Assembly: GCA_965246885.1 (NCBI GenBank)
Contig: OZ251992.1
Coordinates: forward strand, 1,788,906-1,828,906
DNA length: 40,001 nucleotides
Reading direction: 5' to 3'
Origin: Abditibacterium sp.
GTDB taxonomy: Bacteria; Armatimonadota; Abditibacteriia; Abditibacteriales; Abditibacteriaceae
Below, piece by piece: positions 4,647 through 18,598 of the stretch. The notes below the pieces were generated by a model, which was not told the DNA's origin, did not search any database, and was given only the letters and a program-made list of their open reading frames with translations. Position 1 is the first letter of the stretch, and every line of letters begins with the position of its first letter. The translations under genes and the position numbers were made by a program.

Positions 4647-5078
4647 TCAATCAAAGCCGAACACGATTCGCACGCGGTCATCGCCGCACCGTTTGGCGAG
4701 GTGGGCGACCGTTTCCAGCAGAAATTGCACGGGAACGCTTAGATTGTCGTGCGAAAGATTAGCGTGTTCCAATGCCGCGACCAGTTCATCGGCGAGTAGC
4801 CAACTGATGCCGCATGCACCATCCAATTCTCGCTTGACCAGCCAATTACAATCGGTCGGAAAAGAGCGCAACGGGAACAGAGGCTTGATGCCGTTTTCTG
4901 TGTTGCGGATACCTGCCAACGCGGAGAAGAACTCGTAGTCCTTGTAACCGCTGATTGCGTCACCGCGCAAGTCCCACACGGAAACATTATCGTCGAAGGG
5001 TTGAAGATGCCGCTCGGCAGGATAATCCTCAGCGCGCGTAAAGTCGTATTCGATAAAGACGTGGATGTCTGTTCCCAT
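4647..5078 (-). CDS. Hypothetical protein, 143 aa, orphan
   Basis: ATG at 5078 (MGTDIHVFIEYD) with GGAGGA 4 nt upstream, directly after a terminator T-tract. No recognised domain. Confidence 0.6.
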   Translation of the reverse strand: MGTDIHVFIEYDFTRAEDYPAERHLQPFDDNVSVWDLRGDAISGYKDYEFFSALAGIRNTENGIKPLFPLRSFPTDCNWLVKRELDGACGISWLLADELVAALEHANLSHDNLSVPVQFLLETVAHLAKRCGDDRVRIVFGFD

Positions 5079-5085
5079 TGTTCCT

Positions 5086-5172
5086 CCAAACAAAAACAGC
5101 CGCCAGTCTGACCAACTGGCGGCTGTTCATCTAAAGCGCGATTACGCTTCGGTGGTTTCGGTCGTTTCGCCG
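5086..5172 (-). repeat. Duplicated copy of the rplO 3' end plus its intrinsic terminator (copy A)
   Basis: 5086-5104 and 5133-5162 are identical to 5975-5993 and 6021-6050. It encodes ...ETTETTEA-stop like the rplO tail. The terminator stem is CAGCCGCCAGT/ACTGGCGGCTG followed by TTTTTGTTTGG on the minus strand. Confidence 0.85.
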
Positions 5173-5192
5173 ACTTCTAACATCGGCGCGGG

Positions 5193-5660
5193 TTAGCGGA
5201 TGAAGAGTGCGCGGCAGAATCCGGCTTCTTGCATTGGCTTGATTTCGGTGCGGTCTTTGGAAACGAACTCTGCGTTCAAGCGCCGCGAAAGGGCCATTCC
5301 GAAGGCGTCGCCGAGCGCCAAACGGGGGACTTGTTTGGGTTTGTCCGGGTCGCGTGGCATGGCTCGCCGCTCTGCGATGAGAAGCGCGACATCTTGCCAA
5401 AACGTGGTGTCCAAGTCGCTCCGCTCTTGCACTCGGCAAACTGTCCGCAACTGAGCCAGCGCGTTTTGGGCGTCGCGCAGATTGGCCGCAATCGAGGGCG
5501 GCCCGAAATCATAAAAGACCTCGGCCAAGTTCACGGAATGGGCGAAGCAAGCCGCGTCAGGCGCCTTGAACAAACCCGCGACCATCGGGCCTTCGGGTTC
5601 GCCGTTTAGATAAGCCAACATCGCGCTTGAATCGAAGACCAGCACGCGCGGGTTGGGCAT
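5193..5660 (-). CDS. vapC: PIN-domain ribonuclease toxin, VapC-like
   Basis: VLVFDSSAMLAYL has the N-terminal PIN aspartate. Later acidic positions are LAEV, LGDAF and SKDRTE. About 155 aa. The start ATG overlaps the upstream stop (TGATG). Confidence 0.8.
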   Translation of the reverse strand: MPNPRVLVFDSSAMLAYLNGEPEGPMVAGLFKAPDAACFAHSVNLAEVFYDFGPPSIAANLRDAQNALAQLRTVCRVQERSDLDTTFWQDVALLIAERRAMPRDPDKPKQVPRLALGDAFGMALSRRLNAEFVSKDRTEIKPMQEAGFCRALFIR

Positions 5661-5941
5661 CAAGAGTTTGGCTCCCGTTGTCGCCGCTCCAGCGCCGCGA
5701 GGTAGTCCGCTTCGCCTTCGGCATGACGCTCGGCCAGAAATTCGTCCACGCTGCGCCCGCGTCCGGCGAACATTCCCAGCCCCGCGTCCACCGCCGCCAC
5801 CCGCGCGGCTTCGGCGTCATCGGGCGCGGCGAACGGCTCCAACACCGACAGCGCCCACGCTTCGAGCGGCACGCCCTGCTCCCGCGCCGCGCGTTCGATG
5901 CCCGCAAAAACGCGCGGCGGGATGTCCAAAGTTAAAGTCAT
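5660..5941 (-). CDS. Putative antitoxin, VapB-like, 93 aa
   Basis: Small ORF from the ATG at 5941 (MTLTLDIPPRVFAGIERAAREQG), immediately upstream of and overlapping the PIN gene. Assignment rests on position and size only. Confidence 0.6.
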   Translation of the reverse strand: MTLTLDIPPRVFAGIERAAREQGVPLEAWALSVLEPFAAPDDAEAARVAAVDAGLGMFAGRGRSVDEFLAERHAEGEADYLAALERRQREPNS

Positions 5942-5974
5942 GGCTGATTCTGCCTTCAAGTTTCCCTTAACGCG

Positions 5975-6015
5975 CCAAACAAAAACAGCCGCCGATTGAA
6001 GAATGGGCGGCTGTT
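5975..6015 (-). terminator. Intrinsic terminator after rplO (copy B of the duplicated segment 5975-6067)
   Basis: On the minus strand, AACAGCCGCC, a loop, then GGCGGCTGTT followed by TTTTTGTTTGG, starting 15 nt after the rplO TAA. Confidence 0.75.
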
Positions 6016-6029
6016 TGTTCAAAGCGCGA

Positions 6030-6566
6030 TTACGCTTCGGTGGTTTCGGTTTCCGTCGTCTCGGCGGCTACTTTGGGTTTGCGGCCCGAATAGTTCACTT
6101 TGACGATGAGTTCCATTGTGCCGCCGATGGCTTCGATGGCGGCGGCGGCGGACTCGGTGAAGTGGTTGGCGCGGATGGTGAGCGGTTTGGTCAGTTCGCC
6201 CACGCCCAACACGCGCAGACCGTCGAAGCGGCCTTTGACGAGGCCCGATGAACGCAGCAAGGCGGCGTCCACGACCGTGCCTGCGGGCAGGCGGTCGAGT
6301 TGCGACAGGTTGACGATGCCGTATTCCTTGCGCGTCGGGCCGATGGGCATGGCGCCTTTGCCTTTGCCGCGCAGTTTCGGGAGGCGACGAAAAAGCGGGG
6401 TTTGGCCGCCTTCAAAGCCCGGTTTGACCGAGTTGCGCGCGTGCTGACCTTTCTGGCCGCGCGTCGAGGTCTTGCCGTGACCCGAACCGATGCCGCGCCC
6501 GACGCGCTTCTTCTTTTTGCGCGCGCCCTTGGCGGGACGGAGGTTGGTGAGTGTTAAAAGTTCCAT
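6030..6566 (-). CDS. rplO: 50S ribosomal protein L15
   Basis: MELLTLTNLRPAKGARKKKKRVGRGIGSGHGKTSTRG from the ATG at 6566. The upstream part of the ORF track entry covers a palindrome. There is a Thr/Glu-rich C-terminal extension. Confidence 0.93.
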   Translation of the reverse strand: MELLTLTNLRPAKGARKKKKRVGRGIGSGHGKTSTRGQKGQHARNSVKPGFEGGQTPLFRRLPKLRGKGKGAMPIGPTRKEYGIVNLSQLDRLPAGTVVDAALLRSSGLVKGRFDGLRVLGVGELTKPLTIRANHFTESAAAAIEAIGGTMELIVKVNYSGRKPKVAAETTETETTEA

Positions 6567-6596
6567 GATAAGTTGCGTCCGATGAATAATGGCTTG

Positions 6597-6669
6597 CCGA
6601 TTGGAAGAGGGCGGTAGCCCCGCTCCTGCCCACTTGGTCGAAGCGGGGCTACCGCCCTCTTCCAATCGG
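6597..6669. repeat. 28-bp-stem perfect palindromic element in the rpmD-rplO spacer
   Basis: CCGATTGGAAGAGGGCGGTAGCCCCGCT (6597-6624), a 17-nt loop, then its exact reverse complement (6642-6669). The same unit recurs at 16289-16355. Confidence 0.9.
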
Positions 6670-6682
6670 GGTTGGCCAACGG

Positions 6683-6883
6683 CTACGCTTCTTCGACCGT
6701 GACGAGGTGTTTGATTTTGAACACCATGCCGCGCACGCTATCGTTGGCGGGGAGGACGTTGACCGCGCCCATTTTGCGGAGACCGAGGGCCACGGCCGTT
6801 TGCTGCTGGTCTTTGGGATTGCCGATCAAACTTTTGGTCAGAGTCACCTTGATATTCGATGACGAGTGGTTGTCTGGATTCAT
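6683..6883 (-). CDS. rpmD: 50S ribosomal protein L30
   Basis: IKVTLTKSLIGNPKDQQQTAVALGLRKMG...VRGMVFKIKHLVTVEE from the ATG at 6883. Confidence 0.88.
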   Translation of the reverse strand: MNPDNHSSSNIKVTLTKSLIGNPKDQQQTAVALGLRKMGAVNVLPANDSVRGMVFKIKHLVTVEEA

Positions 6884-7412
6884 AGAGGCTTGCGTCCTTG
6901 AGTTGGCGGGGAATCGCCAGTTGTTCGATTGAAATACCGCGCCGCGCGGCCACGTCGGTGGCGCGCTGCATTTGTCGGAGGCCGTCGAGGACGGCATACA
7001 CGTTGTTGATAGCGTTGTCGCTACCCATCGCTTTGGTCAGGATGTCGGTGATGCCCGCCGCTTCGAGAACGGCGCGCGCGGCGGGGCCAGCGATAACGCC
7101 CGTTCCCGGCGAGGCCGGTTTGAGCATGACGCGGGCGCTGCCGTTGCGACCGATGACCATGTGCGGCACGGTCGAGCCGACCATCGAGACTTCGATGAGG
7201 TTCTTGGCCGCGCTTTGCGAGCCTTTGCGAATCGAGTCGGGAACGCTCGCCGATTTGCCCATGCCGACGCCGACGTGTCCGTTGGCGTCGCCCACGACGA
7301 TCAGCGACGAGAAACGGCGCTTGCGGCCACCTTTGACGGTTTTGGAAACCGGCTTGAGTTGGACGACTTTTTCAACCCGTAATTGTTCGGAATCTACTTG
7401 AACTCGTGCCAT
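6738..7412 (-). CDS. rpsE: 30S ribosomal protein S5, with the frame continuing 146 nt into rpmD
   Basis: KVVQLKPVSKTVKGGRKRRFSSLIVVGD...GTGVIAGPAARAVLEAAGI is canonical S5. There is no in-frame stop until 6738. Confidence 0.85.
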   Translation of the reverse strand: MARVQVDSEQLRVEKVVQLKPVSKTVKGGRKRRFSSLIVVGDANGHVGVGMGKSASVPDSIRKGSQSAAKNLIEVSMVGSTVPHMVIGRNGSARVMLKPASPGTGVIAGPAARAVLEAAGITDILTKAMGSDNAINNVYAVLDGLRQMQRATDVAARRGISIEQLAIPRQLKDASLYESRQPLVIEYQGDSDQKFDRQSQRPAANGRGPRSPQNGRGQRPPRQR

Positions 7413-7415
7413 AAT

Positions 7416-7784
7416 TTAAAATACCAAGCCGCCCTCGCGCGCAGCCTCGGCCAATTCCTTGACCACGCCGTGATAGCCCACGCCGTTGCGGTCGAAAACG
7501 ACCATCTCGATGCCCGCCGCCTTTGCGCGCTCGGCAACCGAAGCGCCCACAACGCGGGCGGCGGAACAAGAGCCTTTGCCGCCTTCGATGCCCGCCGCGA
7601 TGTCCTTTTGAACAGTCGAGACCGCGACGAGGGTTTTGCCGTTCACGTCGTCAATGACCTGAACATGGATGTGCTTGAGCGTTTTGTTCACGCACAAACG
7701 CGGGCGATTGGGAGTGCCCGTGACTTTCTGCCGCAAGCGCAAATGACGGCGCTGGCGCAGTTGAACTGAAGTTTTCTTTGCCAT
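7416..7784 (-). CDS. rplR: 50S ribosomal protein L18
   Basis: [35 protein letters not shown]...[18 protein letters not shown]. Confidence 0.93.
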
Positions 7785-7858
7785 GATTGATGTGCCCCGA
7801 TTACCGACCGGGGCGGATTAGTATGAGAGGTAAATGCGTGGTTGGGTTACGAACTGAC

Positions 7859-8341
7859 TCATGTGGATTCGACTTCGCCGTCTGCGGTCATTTCGTAGTC
7901 TTTAGACCAGTAGAAAACCCAGTCGCCACGCTTGCTTCTCTCTTGCCAATCTTTAAAATAGGATTGGGCTTCTTCTAAGGCTTCGTCGTCTTGACACCAA
8001 CTAAAGTCGTCAATATCCAACGGCATTGCCTGTGCGCCCACATGGTTGTCGAAGAATGGTTGAACTTTGATAGGTTGCCAAACAAGGCCTATCTCGCTTC
8101 GCCATTCTTCGATTTGCCTATCCAACATCTGCACGAACTGCTCGTCGTAAACATTGAAAGGGCCAACATCCTTTACGCGAGGAGCAGGGTGGTTCCAAAC
8201 TCTCTCCTCACGACTGAGTAAAACGCCTTCAGACGAGAAGAAATAAGCCACAAGATGAGGGCAGAGTAAGCCAATGATAACCTGTCGGCTATCGCTGGTT
8301 ACGCCGCAACGAAAATCCTCATATCCCTTGAGTGTGAACAT
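7859..8341 (-). CDS. Hypothetical protein, 160 aa, inserted between rplF and rplR
   Basis: Clean ATG-started ORF on the operon strand. It is low GC (29 of 60 at 7861-7920, against 38 of 60 at 8401-8460) and Trp/acidic-rich. I recognise no domain. Confidence 0.6.
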   Translation of the reverse strand: MFTLKGYEDFRCGVTSDSRQVIIGLLCPHLVAYFFSSEGVLLSREERVWNHPAPRVKDVGPFNVYDEQFVQMLDRQIEEWRSEIGLVWQPIKVQPFFDNHVGAQAMPLDIDDFSWCQDDEALEEAQSYFKDWQERSKRGDWVFYWSKDYEMTADGEVEST

Positions 8342-8361
8342 CGTGGTGTAACCACCCGACT

Positions 8362-8940
8362 CTACTTCTTCTTCTTATCCGCCTGTTTACCGGCTTTGCG
8401 GATGACTCGCTCGCCTTGGTAGCGCAGACCTTTGCCTTTGTAGGGTTCGACGGGGCGGCGGCCTTTGACATCCGCCGCGAAGTCGCCGAGGATTTGTTTC
8501 GAGTGGCTCGAAAGCACAATCGTCGCGGCCAGTAGGCCGTTTTCTTGGGTGGGCGTCGAAGCCGTCGCGGTGGCGGCGATGCCGTCGGGCATCGGGATGT
8601 CAACGGGGTGCGAGTAGCCGAGCGCCATTTTGAGCGTCTTGCCCGCGACTTCGGCGCGATAGCCGACGCCGCGCAGTTCGAGCGTTTTGGTGAAGCCTTC
8701 GCTCACACCTTTCACCGCGTTGAACAGCAGGGCGCGCGTCAAGCCGTGCATGGCGCGGTCTTGTTTGGTTTCGGAAGGGCGCACAACGGACATGGTGCCG
8801 CCCTCTTGGTTGACCTCGAAGTTCGCCGGAACGGGCGCCGTGACGGTGCCTTTCGGCCCCTTGACGGTCGCCACACCGTCGGCGACCGAAATCGAAACGC
8901 CGGACGGAACGGGGATAATTGCTTTGCCAATACGTGACAT
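8362..8940 (-). CDS. rplF: 50S ribosomal protein L6
   Basis: MSRIGKAIIPVPSGVSISV...VKGPKGTV...GVGYRA is the L6 pattern. Confidence 0.93.
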   Translation of the reverse strand: MSRIGKAIIPVPSGVSISVADGVATVKGPKGTVTAPVPANFEVNQEGGTMSVVRPSETKQDRAMHGLTRALLFNAVKGVSEGFTKTLELRGVGYRAEVAGKTLKMALGYSHPVDIPMPDGIAATATASTPTQENGLLAATIVLSSHSKQILGDFAADVKGRRPVEPYKGKGLRYQGERVIRKAGKQADKKKK

Positions 8941-8949
8941 GGTAAGTCT

Positions 8950-9342
8950 TCAATACACCTTGGCGAGCAGCTCGCCGCCGACTCCGGCTTTGCGCGCGGC
9001 TGCGCCGGTCAGCACGCCGCGCGGCGTGGAGAGAATCGTGATGCCGAGGCCGCCCAGAACGCGGGGGATGTCGGTTTTGCCGACATACATACGGCGGCCC
9101 GGTTTCGACACGCGCTCGATGTGTTGAATAACACGCTCGCGGTCATTGTAGCGCAGCACAACGGTAATGGTGCCCTGCTTGTTGTCTTCGACGGTGCTGT
9201 AGTCGGCGATATAGCCTTCTTGTTTCAGCACGCGCGCGATCTCGACTTTGATCTTGGAAGAAGGAACGGTGACGTCCACTTTCTTCGCTTGATTCGCGTT
9301 GCGGATACACGTCAGGAAGTCCGCGATGGGATCAGTTTGCAT
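8950..9342 (-). CDS. rpsH: 30S ribosomal protein S8
   Basis: MQTDPIADFLTCIRNANQAKK from the ATG at 9342, ending GGELLAKVY. Confidence 0.93.
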   Translation of the reverse strand: MQTDPIADFLTCIRNANQAKKVDVTVPSSKIKVEIARVLKQEGYIADYSTVEDNKQGTITVVLRYNDRERVIQHIERVSKPGRRMYVGKTDIPRVLGGLGITILSTPRGVLTGAAARKAGVGGELLAKVY

Positions 9343-9413
9343 AATGTTTCTACTTGATATCCCCACTCGTAGAAGTGGTTACCATCCGGCGCAGGGCGTT
9401 GCCCCACGCTTGC

Positions 9414-9608
9414 CTACCAAGAGCTTTTGGTCACTCCCGGAATTAACCCGCGATGCGCCATGCCGCGAAAGCAGATGCGGCAGATGCCGAAGGCGCGCAT
9501 GAAACCGCGCGGGCGACCGCATAGCCCGCAACGGTTCATGTGGCGGGCGGTTAAGTCTTTGGTTGCGTTTTGTCGCAGCGTTTTGGCGACTTTTGATTTT
9601 TTAGCCAT
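9414..9608 (-). CDS. rpsN: 30S ribosomal protein S14, short zinc-binding type Z
   Basis: 64 aa, with CGLCGRPRG...CRICFR (CxxC...CxxC) and the C-terminal GVTKSSW. Confidence 0.92.
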
Positions 9609-9744
9609 TGTCTTGTTCGTCGTTCTTGCGACGGCTTTTTGGGACGCTTGTGGCGGTGCTTTGTATCCACTTCATTATCGCCGCCGAGATGAACACCACG
9701 ACGACGAGCAGTAGAAAGGTCAAGCCCCAGCCGAAAAGTCCCAT
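9601..9744 (-). CDS. Unannotated 47-aa single-TM micro-protein between rplE and rpsN
   Basis: My own translation is [55 protein letters not shown] lies 8 nt upstream of the ATG at 9744. Its stop (9601-9603) overlaps the rpsN start region (ATGGCTAA). It falls below the apparent minimum ORF length of the ORF track (no entry is shorter than 60 aa). Confidence 0.5.
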
Positions 9745-9756
9745 AGTGTGTCCACC

Positions 9757-10335
9757 TTACGCGGCTGTTTGCCCTTCGGCGGAAGCGTCGCCGCGTTTGC
9801 GGAACGGGAGGCCGAGTTCGCGCAGCAAAACGCGGGCTTCCTCGTCGGTTTTGGCGCTTGTGACGAAGGTCACGTCCATACCGCGCGTTTTGGTGATCTT
9901 GTCCACGTTGATTTCGGGGAAGATGACCTGCTCTTTGACGCCGAAGGTGTAGTTGCCGCGCCCGTCGAAGGAGCGGTCGGGGATGCCCTGAAAGTCGCGG
10001 ATGCGCGGCAGGGCGGCGTGGATGAGACGATATAAGAAGTCCCACATCCGCTCGCCGCGCAGCGTCACGACGCAACCAATCGGCTGCCCTTCGCGCAACT
10101 TGAAGCCCGCGATGGACTTCTTCGCCTTGCGAATGGCGGGCTTTTGCCCGGTGATGGTCGCCAGTTCTGCGGCGGCGGCGTCCATCAGTTTCGAGTCGTC
10201 TTTGGCGTCGCCCACGCCCATGTTGACGACGATCTTTTCGAGTTTGGGCAACTGCATCACGTTGGCATAGCCAAACTGCTTTTGCAGCGCCTCTTTGACC
10301 TGCTGGTCATAACGGTCTTTTAAAATAGGTGTCAT
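9757..10335 (-). CDS. rplE: 50S ribosomal protein L5
   Basis: [13 protein letters not shown]...[16 protein letters not shown] from the ATG at 10335. Confidence 0.93.
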
Positions 10336-10374
10336 CGAATGATGCCGAACGGTTTCCAAGCGTTCGGATGGTTA

Positions 10375-10773
10375 TTACTTCAAGCCGAAGCCCGGAAAGG
10401 GAACAACGCCAACGAAACTCAGCAGTCCAGAAGAATTTTCATCTACGAAAGCTGAATCGTATTTGAAGTTGTAAAAGACGACCGCAGTGGTCGCTTTAGT
10501 CCAACCCTTAGCAGTCGCTTCTACGATTGCGGCCTCAACGAATGTTTGCGAGCGTGAAAAACCAGCAAGCAAATCTTTAATGGGTTTCGGCCCGTCTTTG
10601 ACACTCGCTTCTGGGCCATCAGGCGGGTATATCTCGAAGTTAAAGTCGTCCCTAAACGTCTTGTTCAGACTCAGATATTCATCCAACTCTTTCTCCGAAG
10701 CGAAGTTACCCAGCCAGAAGGAGATGAATCCGCCAATCCTGAATTGTTCGTGTGTGGCTGTTGGTCTTGGCAT
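10375..10773 (-). CDS. Hypothetical protein, 132 aa, possibly Imm22-like immunity family, inserted between rplX and rplE
   Basis: FISFWLGNFASEKELDEYL...DFNFEI...LLAGFS...VVFYNFKYD matches my recollection of Imm22-family proteins (SxWxGNF...eeLxxYl...llYNFeYd). AAGGCGG precedes the ATG. GC is low (25 of 60 at 10441-10500). Confidence 0.6.
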   Translation of the reverse strand: MPRPTATHEQFRIGGFISFWLGNFASEKELDEYLSLNKTFRDDFNFEIYPPDGPEASVKDGPKPIKDLLAGFSRSQTFVEAAIVEATAKGWTKATTAVVFYNFKYDSAFVDENSSGLLSFVGVVPFPGFGLK

Positions 10774-10788
10774 TTTCCGCCTTAATAC

Positions 10789-11151
10789 TCACCCAATCGT
10801 TTCGCCGCTTTTCACGCTGACGCGGGAAACTTTGCCGTCTTCGCCTTTGACCCGTTTGACGCGGGTGGGTTTGCCGCTTTTCGGGTCGAGGAGCATGACG
10901 TTCGAGGCGTCAATGGGCATCGGTTTCTCGGTGATGCCTTCGTCGGTGTTGCCTTGCTGCTTGCGCTTGTCGGGCGTGTTTTTCATCACGTTGACGCCTT
11001 CGACGACGACTTTGCCCTTTTTCGGCAGGACTTCGAGGACGGTCTTGGGCGTTTTGCGGTCGCGGTTCTTGCCCGCAATGACGACGACTTGGTCGCCTTT
11101 GCGGATGGACAGCTTGACCGGTTCGTGTTGGGCTTTGGTGCGTTGCGCCAT
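10789..11151 (-). CDS. rplX: 50S ribosomal protein L24
   Basis: KLSIRKGDQVVVIAGKNRDRK (KOW motif), with a long C-terminal region. The start overlaps the rplN stop (TAATG). Confidence 0.92.
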   Translation of the reverse strand: MAQRTKAQHEPVKLSIRKGDQVVVIAGKNRDRKTPKTVLEVLPKKGKVVVEGVNVMKNTPDKRKQQGNTDEGITEKPMPIDASNVMLLDPKSGKPTRVKRVKGEDGKVSRVSVKSGETIG

Positions 11152-11519
11152 TAGAGAACCTCCGGGGCGAGCGACACGATTTTCATAAAGCCTTTGTCGC
11201 GCAGTTCGCGCGCGACGGGGCCGAAGATGCGCGTGCCGCGCGGGTTGCCGTCGTTGTTGATAATCACGGCGGCGTTGTCGTCAAAAGCGATGTGCGAGCC
11301 ATCGGCGCGGCGAACGCCCGTCACGGTGCGAACGATTACGGCCTTCACGACATCGTGGGTTTTGACCGGCGCGCCGGGAATCGCTTCCTTGACCGCGCAA
11401 ATAATGCGGTCGCCGACGTTGCCGAATTTGGCGTTCGAGCCTTTCATCACTCGAATGCACAGCAGTTCGCGCGCGCCGGAGTTATCGGCGCAACGTAAGC
11501 GGGTTTCTGTCTGGATCAT
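11151..11519 (-). CDS. rplN: 50S ribosomal protein L14
   Basis: [24 protein letters not shown]...[11 protein letters not shown]. Confidence 0.95.
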
Positions 11520-11537
11520 GGTGTTCCTTGGCGGCGC

Positions 11538-11810
11538 TTATTTGGCGCGTTCGACGATCTCCAGAAGTCGCCAGTTTTTGTCTTTGGAAAGGGGGCGCGT
11601 TTCCATGATGCGGACGCGGTCGCCTTCCTTGCACTCGTTGTTTTCGTCGTGCGTTTTGAACCGCTTGGTGACGCGCTGGACGCGGCCATAAAGCGGGTGA
11701 CGCGACAAGCGTTCGACCGCGACGACGCAGGTCTTGTCCATTTTGTCGGACACAACCAAGCCTTCGCGGACTTTGCGCGCTGTTCTTTCGATGGGTGTTT
11801 GTTCTGCCAT
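11538..11810 (-). CDS. rpsQ: 30S ribosomal protein S17
   Basis: [42 protein letters not shown] from the ATG at 11810. Confidence 0.92.
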
Positions 11811-11871
11811 TGTGGGTTTCCTGTAGGGAATGATGTCCCCCGCTCCCTTATAGAAGGAAGCGGGTTTTTCT

Positions 11872-12123
11872 TCAGGCCGCCTGCGCTTCGCGGGCGGAAA
11901 GTTCGGTTCGCACGCGCGCAATCAGTTTGCGGACGTGCCGGATACGCATGGGGTTGGGTAGCTGCTGGAGCATCGCTTGGGTGCGGAGGTCGAATAATTC
12001 GCGCTCGCAATCCTTCAAGATGCCGTGCAGTTCCGCTTCCTCGGCGCCTTTGACTCGCTCTCGGACTTCGTAGAGCTTGACTTTGGCGTCGGCGTTGGAA
12101 ATATATCGGTTCAAATCGGCCAT
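11872..12123 (-). CDS. rpmC: 50S ribosomal protein L29
   Basis: [44 protein letters not shown]. Confidence 0.9.
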
Positions 12124-12126
12124 TGT

Positions 12127-12630
12127 TTACAACTCCTCAACGAGGACATCCTCGCTAATGCCGCCCTCGTCCGTCACGGCGCCGTCAGTCGGTTTATCGG
12201 CGACGGCTTGCGAGATGACTTCGGCTTCGCGCTGGATGAACTTGGTTGCCATCGGCAACTTCATTCGCGCGCGGCGCATTGCTTCTTCGGCGACATCGGC
12301 GGGGATGCCGGACATCTCGAACAAGATGCGCCCCGGCTTCACGACCGCGACCCAGAACTCGACGGAGCCTTTGCCGGAACCCATGCGGGTTTCGGCGGGC
12401 TTTTGCGTCACCGGTTTATCCGGGAAGACGCGAATCCACAATTGGCCGCCACGCTTGACGTGACCGCGAATCGCGCGACGCGCCGATTCGATTTGGCGGG
12501 AAGTAATCCAGCCCGCCTCGACCGCTTGGATGGCGAAGTCGCCAAACGCGATGTAGTTCCCGCGCGTCGCCACGCCGGAGCGCCGCCCTCGGTGCTGACG
12601 GCGAAATTTCACATTCTTAGGCATCAACAT
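12127..12630 (-). CDS. rplP: 50S ribosomal protein L16
   Basis: [23 protein letters not shown]...GFGDFAIQA-like core, plus an acidic C-terminal extension. Confidence 0.93.
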
Positions 12631-12633
12631 AAG

Positions 12634-13563
12634 TTATCTTCCGCCTCCTTGGTAGCCGCCACCGCCGCCTTGACCGCCGCGATAGCCACCGCCACCTTGA
12701 CCGCCGCCGCGATAACCGCCGCCACCTTGCCCGCCGCCCTGACCGCCGCGATAACCGCCGCCGCCACCCGGCCCGCCGCGCCCGCGATCCCCGCCGCCAC
12801 CGCGTCCCCGGTCTCCGCCGCCGTAGCCGCCCCGGTCGTCGCGTCCACCGCGATCATCGCGGCGTCCGCGCGGCGCGGTCAGCGTCGGCGCTTCCATGCC
12901 GTCAAGGATTTCGCCGCGATACACCCAGCACTTGATGCCGATGTTGCCGTAGGTCGTGGCAGCTTCGGCGGTGCCGTAGTCAATGTCGGCGCGCAGCGTG
13001 TGACGGGGGACTTTGCCCTCGTTCACGATTTCGCGCCGCGCGATCTCGGCTCCGCCCAAACGTCCCGCCGCTTCGATGCGGCACCCAAGCGCGCCATCTT
13101 TGATAACGCGCTGGAGCGTCATACGCAGGGCGCGACGATAAGCGATACGCCGCTCGATTTGCTGCGCCACGCTTTCGGCGACGAGCGTCGCGTCGAAGTT
13201 CGGGTTGCGAATCTCTTCAACGGTGACGCGCACGTCTTTGCCGGTGAACTTGCTGAGCGCCTTTTGGAGCCGCTCGATGTCCGCGCCACGCTGCCCGATG
13301 ATGACGCCGGGCTTGGCCGTGTGCAATTTGACGGTGCAACGGTTGGCTTGACGCTCGATCTCGATGCGCGAGAGAGCCGGGTCGTTGGTGCGCTCGCGCG
13401 AACCGGGACGGACGGGCTTCGACTTCACGAAACGCCGGATAAAGCGACGAATTTTCTCGTCTTCAAGTAAGAACTCTTTGTATTGGTCTTTGGAATACCA
13501 ACGGCTCTGCCAAGGTTTGATGATGCCAAGGCGCAGGCCATAAGGGTGAATTTTCTGTCCCAT
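12634..13563 (-). CDS. rpsC: 30S ribosomal protein S3 with an ~80-aa RGG/GYRGG low-complexity tail
   Basis: MGQKIHPYGLRLGIIKPWQSRWY... is the canonical S3 core to about aa 230. After that come DRGG and GGYRGGQGGG repeats. Confidence 0.93.
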   Translation of the reverse strand: MGQKIHPYGLRLGIIKPWQSRWYSKDQYKEFLLEDEKIRRFIRRFVKSKPVRPGSRERTNDPALSRIEIERQANRCTVKLHTAKPGVIIGQRGADIERLQKALSKFTGKDVRVTVEEIRNPNFDATLVAESVAQQIERRIAYRRALRMTLQRVIKDGALGCRIEAAGRLGGAEIARREIVNEGKVPRHTLRADIDYGTAEAATTYGNIGIKCWVYRGEILDGMEAPTLTAPRGRRDDRGGRDDRGGYGGGDRGRGGGGDRGRGGPGGGGGYRGGQGGGQGGGGYRGGGQGGGGYRGGQGGGGGYQGGGR

Positions 13564-13567
13564 GATA

Positions 13568-13641
13568 GGAAGGCGGAAAGCGGAAGCCGGAAAGCGGAAA
13601 GGGGCAACCCCAATTTCCGACTTCCGGTTTCCAACTTCCGC
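13568..13641. repeat. Heptamer-built long imperfect hairpin filling the rplV-rpsC spacer
   Basis: The left arm is tandem 7-mers GGAAGGC GGAAAGC GGAAGCC GGAAAGC GGAAAGG. After a CAA loop, the right arm is AATTTCC GACTTCC GGTTTCC AACTTCC. In the minus-strand RNA the arms pair with a few mismatches and G-U pairs. Confidence 0.8.
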
Positions 13642-13643
13642 GT

Positions 13644-13976
13644 TTAGACGGCCTCCTCGACAACGACGGTGATGTGGCTCATGCGCTTTTTCAATTGATC
13701 AGCGCGGCCCCGCGAACGGGGAAGGTAGCGCTTGAGCGTTTTGCCCTTATCAATCATAATGGTCCGCACGACCAAGCGGTCTTCGTCGGCGCCCTCGTTG
13801 TTGACGGCATTGGCGGCGGCGCTTTTGATGACCTTGGCCAAAATGGGCGACGCGATATGCGGGTCGAGCGCCAACATGTTTTGCGCGGTCACGACGGGTT
13901 TGCCCATCACTAATTTGGCGACGCGGCGCACTTTGAGCGGCGTCATGCGAAGGTCGCGTAGAATTGCTTTTGCCAT
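13644..13976 (-). CDS. rplV: 50S ribosomal protein L22
   Basis: [28 protein letters not shown] from the ATG at 13976, which overlaps the rpsS stop. Confidence 0.93.
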   Translation of the reverse strand: MAKAILRDLRMTPLKVRRVAKLVMGKPVVTAQNMLALDPHIASPILAKVIKSAAANAVNNEGADEDRLVVRTIMIDKGKTLKRYLPRSRGRADQLKKRMSHITVVVEEAV

Positions 13977-14254
13977 TACTTTCTCACCTTTTCGGTCGCG
14001 CCGCCATGCCGTTTGAACGTGCGTGTCGGGACGAATTCGCCCAGTTTGTGCCCGACCATGTTCTCTTGAACAAAGACCGGGACGTGTTTGCGCCCATCGT
14101 GAATGGCGATGGTATGGCCGAGCATTTCGGGGAAGATGGTCGAACGACGGCTCCACGATTTGATAATGGCCTTTTTGCCGCTCTCGTTCATCGCCTCGAT
14201 TTTCTTCATCAGCGACAGATCGACAAACGGCCCTTTTTTCAGTGAACGGGACAT
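13976..14254 (-). CDS. rpsS: 30S ribosomal protein S19
   Basis: [19 protein letters not shown]...[11 protein letters not shown]...VGHKLGEF. Confidence 0.95.
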
Positions 14255-14257
14255 GGG

Positions 14258-15094
14258 TTACTTCTTCCTCTTTGAAATAATCATCTTGGAACTCGGCTTC
14301 TTCTTGGTGCGGGTCTTGAAGCCGATGGCTTTGACGCCGGTGGCCGAGACGGGGCCGGACTTGCGACGGCCAACACTCGCGCGGCCTTCGCCGCCGCCGT
14401 GCGGGTGGTCGTTGGGGTTCATCGCTTTACCACGAACGTGCGGCGTGATGCCGCGATGCCGATTGCGGCCCGCATTGCCCCACACGATGTTCTCCCACTC
14501 CGCGTTGCCGACGGCGCCGATGGTGGCGCGGCAACCGAGTTGAACCAAACGGGTCTCGCGCGACGGCAGCAAAATGAGCGCGAACTTGCCCTCTTTCGCT
14601 TGGAGCGTGATGGCCGTGCCCGCGCTGCGGCCCAACTGGGCGCCGCGTCCGGGTTGCAGTTCGACGTTGTGAATTGTGGTGCCGACCGGAATGTTTTGCA
14701 GGGGAAGCGCATTGCCAACGCGGATTTCTGCGGTGGCGCCGTCCATGATTTTGGCGCCGACTTTGAGGCCCGCCGGAGCGATGATGTAGCGCTTGGTGCC
14801 GTCTTCGTTCTGGATGAGCGCGATGTTGGCCGAGCGGTTCGGATCGTATTCGAGGTGCGTGACTTCGCCCGCAACGCCGTCCATACGGCGCTTGAAGTCC
14901 ACGATGCGATAGAGTCGTTTGTGACCGCCGCCTTTGTTGCGGGCGGTCATGCGGCCTTGATTGTTGCGGCCAGCCGTCTTTTTGAGCGGCTCGGTGAGCG
15001 ATTTTTCCGGTCGCTTCTCGGACAGTTCGGGATTGACGACCTTTGTCATCGAACGCCGCGCCGGAGAAGTCGGATTGTAATTCTTAATTGCCAT
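14258..15094 (-). CDS. rplB: 50S ribosomal protein L2
   Basis: [14 protein letters not shown]...GRNNQGRMT...HKRLYR...[14 protein letters not shown]. Confidence 0.95.
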
Positions 15095-15148
15095 GATCGA
15101 AAGGTTTGATACCGCCCGGTTGGACGGTATGAGGACATCTCCTTACGC

Positions 15149-15454
15149 TTAAGCGCCCTCGAAAATTTCCTTTAAGCGGGTCGCGGGCGCGCCTTCGGCG
15201 AGCGTCACGATCGCTTTCTTGTAGTCGGCGGTCTTGCCCTTGCGGGCGCGTCCGACCTGCTTGGTCTTACCTTTCACGGTGAGCGTGTGAATCGAGCGAA
15301 TCTTGGTGTCGAAGGCTTCTTCGATGGCCCGTTGGATTTCGGGCTTGTTCGCGCTCGGTTTGCACCGGAAGGTGTATTGGCCCACCATCGAGAGCTTCAC
15401 CGATTTTTCGGTGATGATGGGGCGGTCGAGGATTTCGTATAACGGCTTGCTCAT
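15149..15454 (-). CDS. rplW: 50S ribosomal protein L23
   Basis: MSKPLYEILDRPIITEKS...YTFRCKPSANKPEIQRAIE from the ATG at 15454. There is a 4-nt overlap with rplD. Confidence 0.92.
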   Translation of the reverse strand: MSKPLYEILDRPIITEKSVKLSMVGQYTFRCKPSANKPEIQRAIEEAFDTKIRSIHTLTVKGKTKQVGRARKGKTADYKKAIVTLAEGAPATRLKEIFEGA

Positions 15455-16119
15455 GCGGTCACCTCTTGGGAGGATTCGGGTTCGGCGCCTTTGCCTTCGA
15501 TGCGCAGCGTCATTTCGGCCCACGCACCGCGCGTGCAAAGCAGGTAGTCGGTGCCCAAAACGTCCACCATCGAAGTCATGCCGACATATTGCGCCTTGAC
15601 TTTGGGCAGATTGCGCGCGCTGAGCGCCACGTTCTCTTCGCCGTGCGAGGACAAAACGAGCACTTTGAACTCGGAAAGTCCCAGCGCCGCGAGCAACGCG
15701 ACCATCTCTTTGGTTTTGGGCGCCTCGAAAGAAAGGGCGTCCAATAGGTAGATGCGGTCGTTTTGCAAACGCGAGTTGAGGACGGTGCGAAACGCGGCCT
15801 GACGCATTTTGCGCGGCGTGTTTTGTGAGTAGTCGCGCGGGCGCGGGCCGTGAACGACGCCGCCACCGCGCATGTGCGGAACGCGCTTGTCGCCTTGACG
15901 CGAGCGGCCCGTTCCTTTCTGGCGCCGGATTTTGACGCCCGAACCTTTCACTTCGTCGCGCCGCTTGGCCTTGGCCGTGCCTTGTCGTTTGCCCGCCAAC
16001 TCCGCGACCATCACTTGGTGAACCAAGGTCTGTTTCGCGTTAGCGGATTCGAGTTTGGCGGGAGCGGCGAGCGTCCCAGTGGACGCCCCGCTCCGGTCGA
16101 AAATTTTGATTTCTGCCAT
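15451..16119 (-). CDS. rplD: 50S ribosomal protein L4
   Basis: MAEIKIFDRSG...RRQKGTGRSRQGDKRVPHMRGGGVVHGPRPRDY from the ATG at 16119. Confidence 0.93.
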   Translation of the reverse strand: MAEIKIFDRSGASTGTLAAPAKLESANAKQTLVHQVMVAELAGKRQGTAKAKRRDEVKGSGVKIRRQKGTGRSRQGDKRVPHMRGGGVVHGPRPRDYSQNTPRKMRQAAFRTVLNSRLQNDRIYLLDALSFEAPKTKEMVALLAALGLSEFKVLVLSSHGEENVALSARNLPKVKAQYVGMTSMVDVLGTDYLLCTRGAWAEMTLRIEGKGAEPESSQEVTA

Positions 16120-16186
16120 GTTCGTTCGCGCGCCTCTTCGCCGACGGGCGCGGATTAGTTGTTTGTGGGCTTCGTCGTCAAGCCAT

Positions 16187-16278
16187 CGGAGAAGCCGGGA
16201 TTCGAACCCGGGATGAACGGTGGAGCCATCCATAACTCATTAGCAGTGAGCCGCCTTCGACCACTCGGCCACTTCTCC
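16187..16278 (-). tRNA. tRNA-Ser (anticodon GCU), type II with a long variable arm
   Basis: The reverse complement folds by hand. Acceptor GGAGAAG/CTTCTCC. Anticodon stem GCTCA/TGAGT with loop CTGCTAA. T-arm CCGGG-TTCGAAT-CCCGG. No encoded CCA. Confidence 0.9.
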
Positions 16279-16288
16279 AAACTGCCCC

Positions 16289-16355
16289 GAGCGGGGCTAC
16301 CGCCCCCTTCCAATCACGGAATGGAGCCGATTGGAAGTGGGCGGTAGCCCCGCTC
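16289..16355. repeat. Second palindromic element built from the same 27-nt unit, with arms in swapped order
   Basis: GAGCGGGGCTACCGCCCCCTTCCAATC (16289-16315), a 13-nt loop, then GATTGGAAGTGGGCGGTAGCCCCGCTC (16329-16355). There is one mismatch. Confidence 0.9.
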
Positions 16356-16501
16356 TACTCCTTCGTCGGTAGGTCGGAGGCCTTGATTGTCCAAGGCTTC
16401 GTCCGATGCGGATTCGGCGCGAATATCATCCAAGCGGCGAATCCCAAAACAAACACGAGAATCGCAACCTGCACCCATTCACCGAAAGTCCAGTGCCTCA
16501 T
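16355..16501 (-). CDS. Unannotated 48-aa single-TM micro-protein coupled to the transaldolase gene
   Basis: My own translation is MRHWTFGEWVQVAILVFVLGFAAWMIFAPNPHRTKPWTIKASDLPTKE. The ATG overlaps the tal TGA (TGATG). In the ORF track it is only the tail of the out-of-frame 16355..17188 ORF. Confidence 0.45.
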   Translation of the reverse strand: MRHWTFGEWVQVAILVFVLGFAAWMIFAPNPHRTKPWTIKASDLPTKE

Positions 16502-17160
16502 CAGTAAGTCCGATTCTCCGCCGGGATTTTGTTCCAGTCGGTGTCGAACAGCTTGAGGCCGATGTCCGTGAGCGGGTTGTTGACCAGCTTTTTGAACAGC
16601 GTAAAGGGCATCGTCGCCACGTCGCTTCCGGCGATGGCAGCTTGTTGGATGTGCAAAGCCGAGCGCGTCGAAGCGGTCAGGATCTGCGTGGCGAACTCGT
16701 AGTTGTCGTAGATCGCGCGAATATCGCGGATCGTGTCCATGCCTTCGCCGCCGATGTCGTCTATGCGGCCCACGAACGGCGAAATGTAAGTCGCGCCGAC
16801 TTTGGCCGCGAGAAGTGCCTGCACCGGCGAGAAGCACAGCGTCACGTTGGTTTTGATGCCCTCTTCGGTGAAGACCTTGACGGCCTTCAAGCCCTCTTGA
16901 GTGAGCGGCACTTTCACGACGACGTTGGGCGCCAAGTCCGCCAAAAAACGGCCCTGACGCAGCATCTCGTCCTTGTGTTCTGCCGTGACTTCCGCCGAAA
17001 CGGGGCCGGAAACGACGCCACAAATCTCCTTCACCAATTCGATGAAGTTGCGATTCGATTTGGCAACGTGCGACGGGTTCGTCGTGATGCCATCGAGTAG
17101 GCCCGTTTCTTGCGCTTCGCGGATTTCGCTGATGTCCGCCGTGTCGAGAAAAAATTTCAT
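16501..17160 (-). CDS. tal: Transaldolase / fructose-6-phosphate aldolase family, short form, 219 aa
   Basis: MKFFLDTADISEIREAQETGLLDGITTNPS...KVPLTQEGLKAVK...TNVTLCFS...YISPFVGRIDD. Confidence 0.9.
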   Translation of the reverse strand: MKFFLDTADISEIREAQETGLLDGITTNPSHVAKSNRNFIELVKEICGVVSGPVSAEVTAEHKDEMLRQGRFLADLAPNVVVKVPLTQEGLKAVKVFTEEGIKTNVTLCFSPVQALLAAKVGATYISPFVGRIDDIGGEGMDTIRDIRAIYDNYEFATQILTASTRSALHIQQAAIAGSDVATMPFTLFKKLVNNPLTDIGLKLFDTDWNKIPAENRTY

Positions 17161-17193
17161 GGTGTCTCCGTTCGTGTCGTCCGCTCAAGCCCT

Positions 17194-17877
17194 TTACGCC
17201 TTAAAAATTTTCAGCAACCCACCGGGTGCGCCGGGGACGGCGCCTTTGACGACGAGCAGGTTGCGCTCGGCGTCCACTTCCACGACCGACAGGCCGAGTT
17301 GCGTGACCGTCGCGTCGCCCATGTGACCGGGGCGGCGGGCGCCGGGAAAGGTGCGGGCCGGGTCGGTCGCGCCGTTCGAGGCGGGTTTGCGGTGGATTTT
17401 GGCGCCGTGCGAGCCGCCTTGTCCGCGAAAGTTGTGGCGCTTCATGGCGCCCGCAAAGCCGCGTCCCTTGCTTTTGCCCTGCACTTTGATGTCGTCGCCA
17501 GCCGTGAAAATGTCGGCAACCGTCAAGGACGCGCCGGGAGCGGGTTCTTCGCCGTCGCCTTCCAAGCGGAACTCGCCCAGAAAGCGCGTCGGCGTCGCGC
17601 CGCCATTGCGGGCAAAGTGGCCCGCGACGGGTTTCGACGCTTCGCCTTTACCTCTGTGCCCCGCATCGCCGCGCTTGATTTTGGTCTCTTTGCGCGCCGC
17701 CTTCTTTTCGACGTAGCCCAGTTGCACGGCGTCGTAGCCGTCCTTTTCCTCGGTCTTGCGCTGCACAACAGCGCACGGCCCGCACTCGATAATCGTCACG
17801 GGGACGACGTTGCCTTCAGGCGTAAACACTTGCGTCATGCCGACTTTGCGGCCCAATAATCCATTAACAGTTGCCAT
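17194..17877 (-). CDS. rplC: 50S ribosomal protein L3
   Basis: GLLGRKVGMTQVF...VPVTIIECGPCAVVQ...FRGQGGSHG. Confidence 0.95.
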   Translation of the reverse strand: MATVNGLLGRKVGMTQVFTPEGNVVPVTIIECGPCAVVQRKTEEKDGYDAVQLGYVEKKAARKETKIKRGDAGHRGKGEASKPVAGHFARNGGATPTRFLGEFRLEGDGEEPAPGASLTVADIFTAGDDIKVQGKSKGRGFAGAMKRHNFRGQGGSHGAKIHRKPASNGATDPARTFPGARRPGHMGDATVTQLGLSVVEVDAERNLLVVKGAVPGAPGGLLKIFKA

Positions 17878-17930
17878 TTGATTCTCCAGAGGTCAGCCCG
17901 CGAGTGCGGGGTAGACGTTCGATGCCGTCG

Positions 17931-18233
17931 TTACAGCTTGATTTGAATATCCACGCCGCTCGGCAGGTTCAGGTTCGTGAGTTCCGTGATGGTGCGCGGG
18001 TCGGGGTCAATGATGTCAATCAAGCGTTTGTGCGTCCTCATCTCGAAGTGTTCCATTGATTCCTTGTCAACGAACGGCGAGCGGATAACGCAGTAGATGC
18101 TTTTGTCGGTCGGAAGCGGAACTGGCCCGCTTAAGCGCGAGCCAGTGCGCCGCGCCGTAGTTACGATTTGCTGCGCCGTCTGGTCGAGCAATTTATGATC
18201 GAAGGCGCGCAGCTTGATGCGAATTTTTTCCAT
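17931..18233 (-). CDS. rpsJ: 30S ribosomal protein S10
   Basis: [18 protein letters not shown]...GPVPLPT...[24 protein letters not shown]. Confidence 0.95.
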
Positions 18234-18271
18234 GTGTGATGTTCAACCTTGCGCCGACGTGCGCGCAAATT

Positions 18272-18541
18272 TCAACTCGTCTCCTCTGTCATTTCGAAAG
18301 GAGCTATGCGACTTGAGGAATCCACCTGCGCCCCGTCATTAGTTCCATTGGCGCTCGACTGTCCGCCCTTGTTGTAACGGGCCATCAGTCGCCGCTTGCG
18401 CTTTTCATCCAATTCCGCCCGCAGTTCATCGGCACGAGGGCTGTCCTCTCCACCGAGAATGACCTCACCGGTCTCCTCATCTTCATAAAGGATGGGCCGC
18501 GATAAATCTGGGATGACTCGCATAACTTCGCTCGCTGACAA
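18272..18541 (-). CDS. Possible small acidic protein (83-89 aa), or an S10-operon leader region
   Basis: Open frame from TTG 18541 (GAGGAA just upstream) or ATG 18523. It lies between the tuf terminator and rpsJ. No recognised domain, and coding status is uncertain. Confidence 0.35.
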   Translation of the reverse strand: MSASEVMRVIPDLSRPILYEDEETGEVILGGEDSPRADELRAELDEKRKRRLMARYNKGGQSSANGTNDGAQVDSSSRIAPFEMTEETS

Positions 18542-18598
18542 GATTCCTCTGCTCGCTTAAGCTCGCCTCGGAATGACAGGGATGGTGGTAAAGACGCG

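Follow-up and report, generated by a model that had tools for sequence, protein, structure and literature searches.

An Abditibacterium S10–spc ribosomal-protein cluster with open spacers that hold old passengers, recent cargo and mobile repeats

The S10–spc cluster of ribosomal-protein (r-protein) genes is the textbook case of a gene order that selection has frozen, to keep its genes co-expressed and translationally coupled, and among conserved gene arrays it has been called the most striking (PMC2588523). In a 40,001-nucleotide stretch of Abditibacterium sp. DNA (assembly GCA_965246885.1, contig OZ251992.1, positions 1,788,906 to 1,828,906; hereafter the window), the 21 r-protein genes from rpsJ to rplO keep the canonical bacterial order on a single strand, but the cluster is not compact, and gaps of 381-577 nt within it contain open reading frames (ORFs). 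The minus-strand gene order from tuf to vapBC, together with every insert, is exactly that given in a preliminary description of this DNA, as shown by the ORFs, by scans for tRNAs and Rfam families and by profile searches. The explanation that we favor, with confidence somewhat better than even, is that the Abditibacteriota tuf–S10–spc cluster has lost the usual pressure for compactness, that its open spacers have been filled in layers and that the passengers are expressed by read-through. The first layer would be an old, fixed passenger with native codon usage, the transaldolase gene tal between rplC and rplD, and the second would consist of clade-level passengers, namely tm47, which is translationally overlapped with rpsN, and a tRNA-Ser gene. 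The third would hold recent, horizontally acquired genes of foreign composition, orf132 (an Imm22 gene) and orf160. The fourth would be made of non-coding mobile repeats: two palindromes resembling REPINs (doublets of repetitive extragenic palindromic, or REP, sequences), a heptamer-repeat hairpin and a miniature inverted-repeat transposable element (MITE) holding a reading frame called 'orf89'. The promoter-less, co-oriented passengers would be transcribed by read-through from the r-protein promoter, since there is no room around them for a promoter or terminator of their own. They would be tolerated because the untranslated spacers in which they land are closely followed by conserved leader hairpins that would preserve the start context of rplE and rplR.

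How far does this layout depart from that of other bacteria? The comparison used a related set of 19 loci, the window and 18 relatives, onto which the window proteins were mapped and in which every inter-gene slot was measured. The relatives are L001, the best genome match, an Abditibacterium sp. metagenome-assembled genome with 70% identity in L24 and 62-92% in the other r-proteins; L086, a 16.7-kb ENA contig with ~93% DNA identity to the window; and L087-L102, 16 loci from a metagenome scan seeded with a lineage-specific C-terminal extension of S5. The outgroup control came from a GTDB scan seeded with L24, which returned mostly Gemmatimonadota and Firmicutes and one Abditibacteriota locus (L001); its 79 other loci served as the control, and slot counts use the 51 of them that are at least 15 kb long. 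In the related loci the median gap across 156 slots is 86 nt, with 42 slots (27%) of at least 150 nt and 16 of at least 300 nt, whereas the median across the 891 outgroup slots is 3 nt, with 7 (0.8%) of at least 150 nt and none at 300 nt. Neither tal nor any other insert was found in the 51 outgroup loci. Measured against the 51 outgroup loci, the layout of the window is therefore far outside the bacterial norm. With L001 as its best match, the lineage itself is to be classed as Abditibacteriota-like.

The second line of evidence is that individual slots are occupied differently in different relatives. Five mutually unrelated same-strand cargoes are found in the rplX–rplE slot among the related loci: the Imm22 gene orf132 in the window and L086; a 123-aa protein with multiple transmembrane (TM) segments in L090; a complete 296-aa short-chain dehydrogenase/reductase (SDR) enzyme at 5730-6620 of L095 (Pfam adh_short, 2e-52; G+C content at third codon positions, GC3, of 0.45), a cargo larger than any other observed in this lineage's spc operon; a secreted protein of 125/129 aa in L097 and L001 (mutual identity 45%); and an additional 99-aa TM protein in L097. 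The same slot is empty, at 110-143 nt, in L089, L091 and L098. Other slots vary as well. The rplF–rplR slot holds orf160 in the window and TM ORFs of 73-78 aa in L001 and L097, the rplE–rpsN slot holds either tm47 or, in L095, an 81-aa TM ORF, and ORFs of 74-140 aa lie in the rplW–rplB, rplC–tal and tal–rplD slots of L001 or L086. Slot ORFs of at least 70 aa run without exception in the direction of the operon if two antisense ORFs of L001, which are probably spurious, are set aside.

Of the two genes assigned to the recent layer, orf132 (10375-10773, minus strand) occupies the rplX–rplE slot of the window. Its product scores 39.5 bits with the Pfam profile PF14112 (Imm22/DUF4284), for which the cut-off is 27, with an E value of 1.2e-9 and coverage of 118 of the 121 profile positions, and the same profile is found in 12 of 12 homologues. 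The Imm22 family consists of immunity proteins from polymorphic toxin systems; links to ColD/E5-fold, Tox-REase-4, Ntox49 and Ntox14 toxins have been described (PMC3482391), and neutralization of a DNase toxin by Imm22 has been demonstrated recently (RehhI, bioRxiv 10.64898/2026.09.22.753552). No cognate toxin gene is adjacent to orf132, whose neighbors are rplX and rplE, and for this reason it is treated as an orphan immunity gene. In its PF14112 match and its lack of a toxin it resembles the orphan and poly-immunity genes of Zhang et al. 2012 (PMC3482391), but it sits between two essential r-protein genes and not in a toxin/immunity island. Homologues elsewhere occur in accessory contexts, for example beside an nSTAND3/Mrr_cat gene, and never in r-protein operons. 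Among the related loci orf132 is present only in the window and L086; the two proteins are 88.5% identical, and the ratio of nonsynonymous to synonymous substitution rates (dN/dS) of 0.065 over 130 codons indicates that the gene is under purifying selection.

The other, orf160 (7859-8341, minus strand), lies in the rplF–rplR slot and encodes a real protein of an uncharacterized family. A profile search places 648 clusters at 50% identity in this family, its 13 close homologues belong to other lineages, Obscuribacterales among them, where each stands in an unrelated context, and the AlphaFold model has a mean confidence (pLDDT) of 88.9. Searches for matches in Pfam, NCBIfam, PADLOC, PDB sequences and PDB folds, and for a viral relative, were all negative. 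Twelve relatives cover the rplF–rplR slot and all of them lack orf160; in the three nearest, L089-L091 (~90% r-protein identity), the slot measures 72-129 nt.

Base composition sets both genes apart from their surroundings. The preliminary description had sampled a lower GC content in the inserts (29/60 and 25/60) than in rplF (38/60), and all three counts are exact. Over whole genes, GC is 0.48 in orf132 and orf160 and 0.53-0.65 in the r-protein genes, and GC3 is 0.52 in the two inserts and 0.66-0.79 in the r-protein genes. The GC3 of slot cargo ORFs across the related loci falls between 0.39 and 0.57 in all cases. From low GC the preliminary description had concluded that the inserts were acquired later, and for three of them this conclusion stands. 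On the combined evidence of its absence from 12 relatives, a GC3 of 0.52 and a family found elsewhere in other phyla and contexts, orf160 is best described as a recent foreign insert; orf132 is likewise so described from its restriction to the window and its closest relative L086 and its foreign composition; and the inverted-repeat element with 'orf89', considered below, is missing from L086. For tal and tm47 the conclusion is refuted. It had been stated at the outset that inserts shared by relatives and written in native codon usage would be an old lineage feature, and tal recurs at the same site with native GC3, while tm47 is conserved in several relatives.

The tal gene (16501-17160, minus strand) encodes an fsa/talC-type transaldolase between rplC and rplD. 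Its product matches Pfam TAL_FSA at 1.5e-56 and TIGR00875 at 291.7 bits against a cut-off of 245.95, a match at equivalog level. It is found at the same site in L001 (83% identity), L086 (96%) and L098 (90%), and its GC3 is 0.78. Judged by this distribution and composition, tal is an old, lineage-fixed feature and not a recent colonist. The 47-aa single-TM protein gene tm47 (9601-9744, minus strand; GC3 0.69) overlaps the start of rpsN by 8 nt and is called as a gene in the source genome. Orthologues stand at the same site in L086, L089, L090 and L091 with 57-82% identity and a conserved C-terminal motif, and the overlap with the rpsN start is kept wherever the locus covers it (L089-L091), the L086 copy being truncated at the end of its contig. 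For these reasons tm47 looks like a real gene that is conserved in the closer relatives. The tRNA-Ser (GCT) gene within the S10 part (16186-16279, minus strand; identified by ARAGORN and Rfam) is shared by the window and L086 only and is absent from L001, L098 and L095. Less can be said of tm48 (16355-16501, minus strand), a 48-aa hydrophobic ORF of uncertain coding status whose ATG start overlaps the tal stop by 1 nt. It has no homologues and is seen only in the window, and the corresponding slot of L086 holds an unrelated 140-aa ORF with a signal peptide, plus tandem repeats. In L086, the tal–rplD and rplE–tm47 spacers consist in part of tandem arrays of 14-17-nt units (AATTGCGTATTTGGCC-like), at 8722-8869 and 16300-16440.

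What could make the spacers before rplE and rplR suitable for occupation? A hairpin of the form CCGAACG-CUUGGAAAC-CGUUCGG (10345-10367, minus strand) lies ~10 nt upstream of the rplE start with orf132 immediately 5' of it, and a second, CCCCG-GUCGGUAAU-CGGGG (7795-7813, minus strand; fold z -3.2), lies ~10 nt upstream of the rplR start with orf160 on its 5' side. Across 8 lineages, 94.6% of the cells in the rplE hairpin alignment are paired and 2 pairs are changed on both sides; across 12 lineages, the rplR hairpin has 95% of cells paired and 3 pairs changed on both sides; in each case 0 of 500 shuffles reach the covariation score. The loops CUUGGAAAC and GUCGGUAAU are invariant across these 8-12 lineages and the stems show compensatory changes. 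Neither hairpin has a match in Rfam. Alignment of occupied with empty slots reveals that orf132 and orf160 both end just 5' of the leader hairpins. We infer that these are leader or operator elements that free initiation at rplE and rplR from the upstream gene, and since initiation would then be independent, the spacer 5' of each hairpin would be a low-harm site for insertion. The two hairpins are candidates for new r-protein leader or autoregulatory elements, and the one before rplE could, as an example, be an S8-type operator.

The remaining inserts are repeats. A MITE-like element of ~295 bp (18285-18579, minus strand) is bounded by imperfect terminal inverted repeats of ~41 nt, CTGTCATTCCGAGG and GAGGAATC, which align at ~76% identity; its size, its terminal inverted repeats and the lack of a transposase agree with that class. 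The 89-aa reading frame 'orf89' (18272-18541) lies almost wholly inside it. A segment of ~310 bp is missing from L086 at the exact 'orf89' site, and the same inverted repeat recurs as short hairpins in the rplE–tm47 gap of L086 and the rpsQ–rplN gap of L095, so that the repeat is both multi-copy and polymorphic. Among 5.8 billion proteins 'orf89' matched only itself, and it has no Pfam match. Because it is bounded by repeats and without homologues, 'orf89' is read as part of a MITE-like insertion and probably is not a gene. The element stands between the tuf terminator and a short conserved rpsJ leader and is thus, arguably, outside the S10 transcript. The count of at least six inserts in the preliminary description is too high if it is taken as a number of genes, since 'orf89' and tm48 lack homologues and the palindromes and the hairpin are non-coding repeats.

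Two of those repeats are REPIN-like palindromes, one with 27-nt arms at 16289-16355 (fold -57 kcal/mol) and one with perfect 28-nt arms in the rpmD–rplO gap at 6597-6669 (fold -75.1 kcal/mol, z -12). They belong to one family, with four arms in the window where 0 are expected by chance, as for a REP/REPIN doublet, and a related palindrome element lies in the tuf–rpsJ gap of the distant L001. The third is a hairpin of GGAAnnn heptamer units in the 80-nt rplV–rpsC spacer (13564-13643, minus strand; -41.9 kcal/mol, z -5.2), without a U-tract. In L086 the rplV–rpsC slot holds a different, perfect hairpin with 45-nt arms, and at least three further hairpin families occupy six other slots of its cluster; long hairpins with arms of 22-90 nt occur in all the other relatives examined except L090. 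A comparison of the hairpin repeats in the cluster with those in the remainder of the window shows no clear enrichment in the cluster. Rfam, at gathering and E-value thresholds, returned only the tRNA and spurious miRNA-precursor matches on the long hairpins. Correia elements of Neisseria are MITEs that are located inside operons and co-transcribed. As in REP/REPIN and MITE families such as Correia, the elements here are multi-copy hairpin inverted repeats of 70-300 bp that are intergenic within transcription units and common to related genomes, and they behave like such elements; they differ in that no cognate transposase, whether REP-associated tyrosine transposase (RAYT) or insertion-sequence (IS) enzyme, was seen in these 40 kb and no target-site duplication was identified. 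Elsewhere in the window, an inverted repeat at 24519-24674, with 60-nt arms that are 95% complementary and a 36-nt loop, lies beside a PAS-GGDEF-EAL gene and belongs to another family than those of the cluster.

Expression of the passengers is considered from the position of terminators and promoters. Intrinsic terminators, each a hairpin with a U-tract, are predicted after tuf (18590-18643, minus strand; -36 kcal/mol, z -5.4; 100% identical in L086) and directly 3' of rplO (5975-6016, minus strand; -31.7 kcal/mol, z -5.8). U-tracts follow the hairpins after tuf, rplO and vapC and none of those inside the cluster. The preliminary description had found no terminators belonging to the inserts, a point that requires amendment at both ends: U-tract terminators separate tuf from 'orf89' and rplO from vapB, and because these intervene, 'orf89' and vapBC are not clearly inside the operon transcript. 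Within the cluster, the inserts are set off by upstream gaps of -8 to 39 nt and downstream gaps of 12 to 75 nt, with orf132 starting 15 nt past the rplX stop and orf160 20 nt past the rplF stop. A scan for sigma-70-like sites found 3 where 3.6 are expected, which is not above chance, although the promoter consensus of the phylum may differ. From these short upstream gaps, the absence of internal U-tracts and the chance level of promoter-like sites, it is plausible that tal, tm48, orf132, tm47 and orf160 are carried on the operon mRNA by read-through. The RBS-like sequences that had been noted for the inserted ORFs are weak evidence, as many genes here, r-protein genes included, are without an obvious Shine-Dalgarno sequence.

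The putative toxin-antitoxin pair beyond rplO (5193-5941, minus strand) is composed of a vapB-like gene (5660-5941) and a vapC-like gene with a putative PIN domain (5193-5663), with a terminator of its own at 5094-5128. The vapC-like protein scores 18.5 bits against PIN, below the cut-off of 23.6, and its 52%-identical orthologue in L088 scores 24.8 bits; no PDB sequence matched it. The vapB-like gene, a 93-aa ORF without a Pfam family of its own, is a small upstream partner that overlaps vapC by 4 nt. Diverged vapBC homologues (52-72% identity) lie downstream of rplO in L088 and L099. Given the intervening terminator, vapBC is best regarded as a neighbor beyond the end of the operon and not as an operon member.

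How might the cargo arrive? No integrase or transposase was found among the window ORFs scanned. A comparison of the window with L086 shows that rplX and orf132 (10375-11151 against 14704-15487) have 82-93% DNA identity, with one patch at 55%, while the flanking rplN and rplE are 97-100% identical. The synonymous divergence (dS) is 0.74 for orf132 and 0.36 for rplX and 0.09-0.27 for neighboring genes (0.09-0.14 for rplN and rplE). Moreover, L24 of L086 is an outlier to every relative (79-83% identity), and L24 of the window is closest to that of L091 (89%). This local divergence may mark a recombination tract, or may in part be sequencing error. A different trace is seen in L097, where a PIN_3 toxin-antitoxin module (4.9e-20) lies between 187-bp direct duplications that are 93% identical (6294-6480 and 7262-7446) and consist of the rplO 3' end and terminator. 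The duplication looks like the expected footprint of single-crossover (Campbell-type) integration of a circle with homology to rplO. The PIN gene of L097 and vapC of the window were compared as possible copies of the same module and are unrelated, which implies independent insertions. We infer from these cases that cargo would spread, at least in part, by homologous recombination through the flanking conserved r-protein genes.

The cargo resembles that of integron arrays in being promoter-less, co-oriented, compositionally foreign single genes behind a strong promoter that vary among relatives. An integron cassette array was nevertheless rejected, as there is no intI integrase among the scanned ORFs and no shared palindromic or attC-like site after orf132 or orf160; in further contrast to integrons, the cargo here is interleaved with essential genes and not arrayed. 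A bolder proposal, which we hold only tentatively and regard as rather unlikely, is that the S10–spc spacers, chiefly rplX–rplE and rplF–rplR with their downstream leader hairpins, are an expression platform and exchange hotspot for promoter-less accessory genes with the near-identical r-protein flanks as universal homology arms. If that were true, immunity proteins, small envelope proteins and enzymes would be captured, expressed at r-protein levels and passed between species, and the system would work like an integron without an integrase within the most conserved operon of the cell.

Several observations weigh against layered filling of open spacers with read-through expression. No direct repeats or target-site duplications of at least 8 nt surround the window inserts. 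The L086 contig has 3x coverage and at least one frameshift (in tuf), and the divergence of rplX could partly be sequencing error. The closest relatives, L086 and L087/L088, do not cover the orf160 slot, and the age of orf160 is thus bounded by more distant ones. The low GC3 of the cargo could partly reflect low codon adaptation instead of foreign origin, to which it can be answered that 18 other native genes of the window have a mean GC3 of 0.75 (sd 0.06). Co-transcription and translation of the inserts are proposed from gene geometry; the sigma-70 scan could miss real promoters, as the phylum consensus may differ; and hairpins as stable as -42 to -75 kcal/mol might, even without U-tracts, terminate or process transcripts. 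A competing explanation, which we consider improbable but worth weighing, is that the cluster is split into small r-protein transcription units (for example ...rplX / rplE...rplF / rplR...rplO) and the inserts are islands with their own promoters. The long hairpins would then be terminators or processing sites and the leader hairpins the 5' untranslated regions of independent units. Such an arrangement would account for covarying hairpins directly before rplE and rplR, the two slots with the largest cargo, and for very stable hairpins inside the cluster; the AT-rich spacers of 250-980 nt in relatives could hold promoters, and the promoter consensus of the phylum may be a different one. In the window, however, orf132 and orf160 start 15 and 20 nt past the preceding stops and tm47 and tm48 overlap their neighbors, so that promoters would have to lie inside r-protein coding sequence. 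The internal hairpins are without the U-tracts that the cluster-flanking terminators have, and independent islands would need no strict co-orientation, yet cargo of at least 70 aa is co-oriented throughout, bar the two likely spurious antisense ORFs of L001.

Still less probable, in our judgment, is that the inserts are mostly non-functional clutter, that is, repeats and dead or spurious ORFs accumulated under weak selection in a slow-growing lineage, for which riding on the operon transcript would have no meaning. Some of the material does fit this description: 'orf89' is without homologues and enclosed in an element bounded by repeats, tm48 occurs in the window alone, many gap ORFs of relatives are short, hydrophobic and low in GC, as chance predicts from T-rich spacers, and the hairpin repeats are genome-wide and not specific to the cluster. 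The principal passengers do not, as orf132 scores above the Imm22 threshold and has a dN/dS of 0.065 over 130 codons, orf160 belongs to a conserved family of 648 clusters with a confidently predicted fold, tal is intact, matches fsa/talC at equivalog level and is conserved across the lineage, tm47 keeps its frame and C-terminal motif in five lineages, and the L095 cargo is an intact SDR enzyme. An assembly or binning artefact, in which foreign low-GC fragments were mis-joined into the cluster, could produce the abrupt drops in GC at the inserts but is scarcely credible. The same inserts (orf132, tm47, tal and tRNA-Ser) recur at the same sites in independent assemblies of other samples (L086, L089-L091, L098, L001), the inserts are bounded exactly by a stop codon on one side and a conserved hairpin on the other while the frames of the neighbors are intact, and the source contig is 3.48 Mb long.

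The r-protein genes into which these passengers are set are all on the minus strand. The first gene of the cluster is tuf (elongation factor Tu; 18653-19843), with a tblastn identity of 89% to L001 and 97-100% to L086, followed by rpsJ (S10; 17931-18233) and rplC (L3; 17194-17877). Beyond tal and the tRNA, rplD, rplW, rplB, rpsS and rplV form one unbroken block (13644-16119) with gaps of -4 to 54 nt. Next are rpsC, with a tail of RGG/GGY repeats, rplP, rpmC, rpsQ, rplN and rplX (10789-13563), then rplE (L5; 9757-10335), then rpsN (Zn-type S14), rpsH and rplF (8362-9608), then rplR, rpsE (224 aa, with a C-terminal extension) and rpmD (6683-7784), and rplO (L15; 6030-6566) is the final r-protein gene. 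After rplO come the terminator, vapBC, orf148 and a CAP-domain gene in place of secY, which was not found among the ORFs scanned elsewhere in the window. The canonical S10–spc cluster of E. coli and B. subtilis (PMC2588523) has the identical rpsJ–rplO order on one strand with tuf upstream. The window departs from it in having tal, a tRNA, small membrane ORFs, an Imm22 gene, orf160 and hairpin repeats between r-protein genes, in an rplO without downstream secY, adk, map, infA, rpmJ and the alpha operon, and in a tuf without upstream rpsL, rpsG and fusA.

A further difference from the canonical cluster is an out-of-frame overlap of 146 nt between rpsE and rpmD (6738-6883), where rpsE carries a C-terminal extension of ~55 aa. 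Both frames and the overlap (86-149 nt) are kept in every related locus that covers the junction (L001, L087-L102), and the extensions of the window and the distant L001 share 66% identity. A conserved overlap of this length between two r-protein genes is unusual. Other r-proteins are extended too: S3 (rpsC) has a low-complexity tail of ~82 aa (12634-12882) that is rich in glycine, arginine and tyrosine, with a GC content of up to 0.74, and such tails are also present in L001 and L086, while rplP and rplO have C-terminal extensions that are specific to the lineage. Two ORFs without a Pfam family flank the cluster, orf148 (4647-5093, GC3 0.61) right after the vapC terminator and orf256 (20109-20879, GC3 0.55) directly upstream of tuf, and with their low GC3 they may be additional foreign genes. 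Far from the cluster, a solitary tRNA-Ile (GAT) gene within 37383-37606 has no rRNA gene nearby and is followed by 2-3 strong hairpins (37463-37510 and 37561-37606).

Insertion of non-ribosomal genes into r-protein arrays has precedent. Published analyses of the ribosomal operon cluster have mostly dealt with insertions between operons (PMC8046335); among the cases treated in the text considered here, tusDCB, bfd-bfr and ilv-leu separate operons and nrdHEF is found within the rpoBC operon. As here, a few non-ribosomal genes are inserted into an otherwise conserved translational array, with horizontal transfer, duplication and transposable elements considered as possible routes. Relative to the cases in that text, the insertions in the present lineage are inside the S10 and spc operons, affect many slots and vary between close relatives, and one slot has been reused by five unrelated cargoes. 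A literature search found no paper describing a porous S10–spc state in Abditibacteriota. The components are all of known kinds, and the novelty appears to lie in their arrangement in a porous S10–spc operon whose slots are reused by unrelated cargo.

A lineage in which about a quarter of the inter-gene slots are expanded, and in which the same slot is refilled by unrelated foreign genes, is a natural experiment on what constrains r-protein operons, whether growth rate, coupling or autoregulatory leaders. The two candidate leader RNAs arise in a phylum that has barely been studied. Such genomes would be mis-handled by marker-gene and synteny tools in which the r-protein genes are expected to form one contiguous block. 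For the bacteria themselves, the arrangement would mean that accessory genes, including an orphan immunity gene under purifying selection, can occupy an essential and probably very highly expressed transcript.

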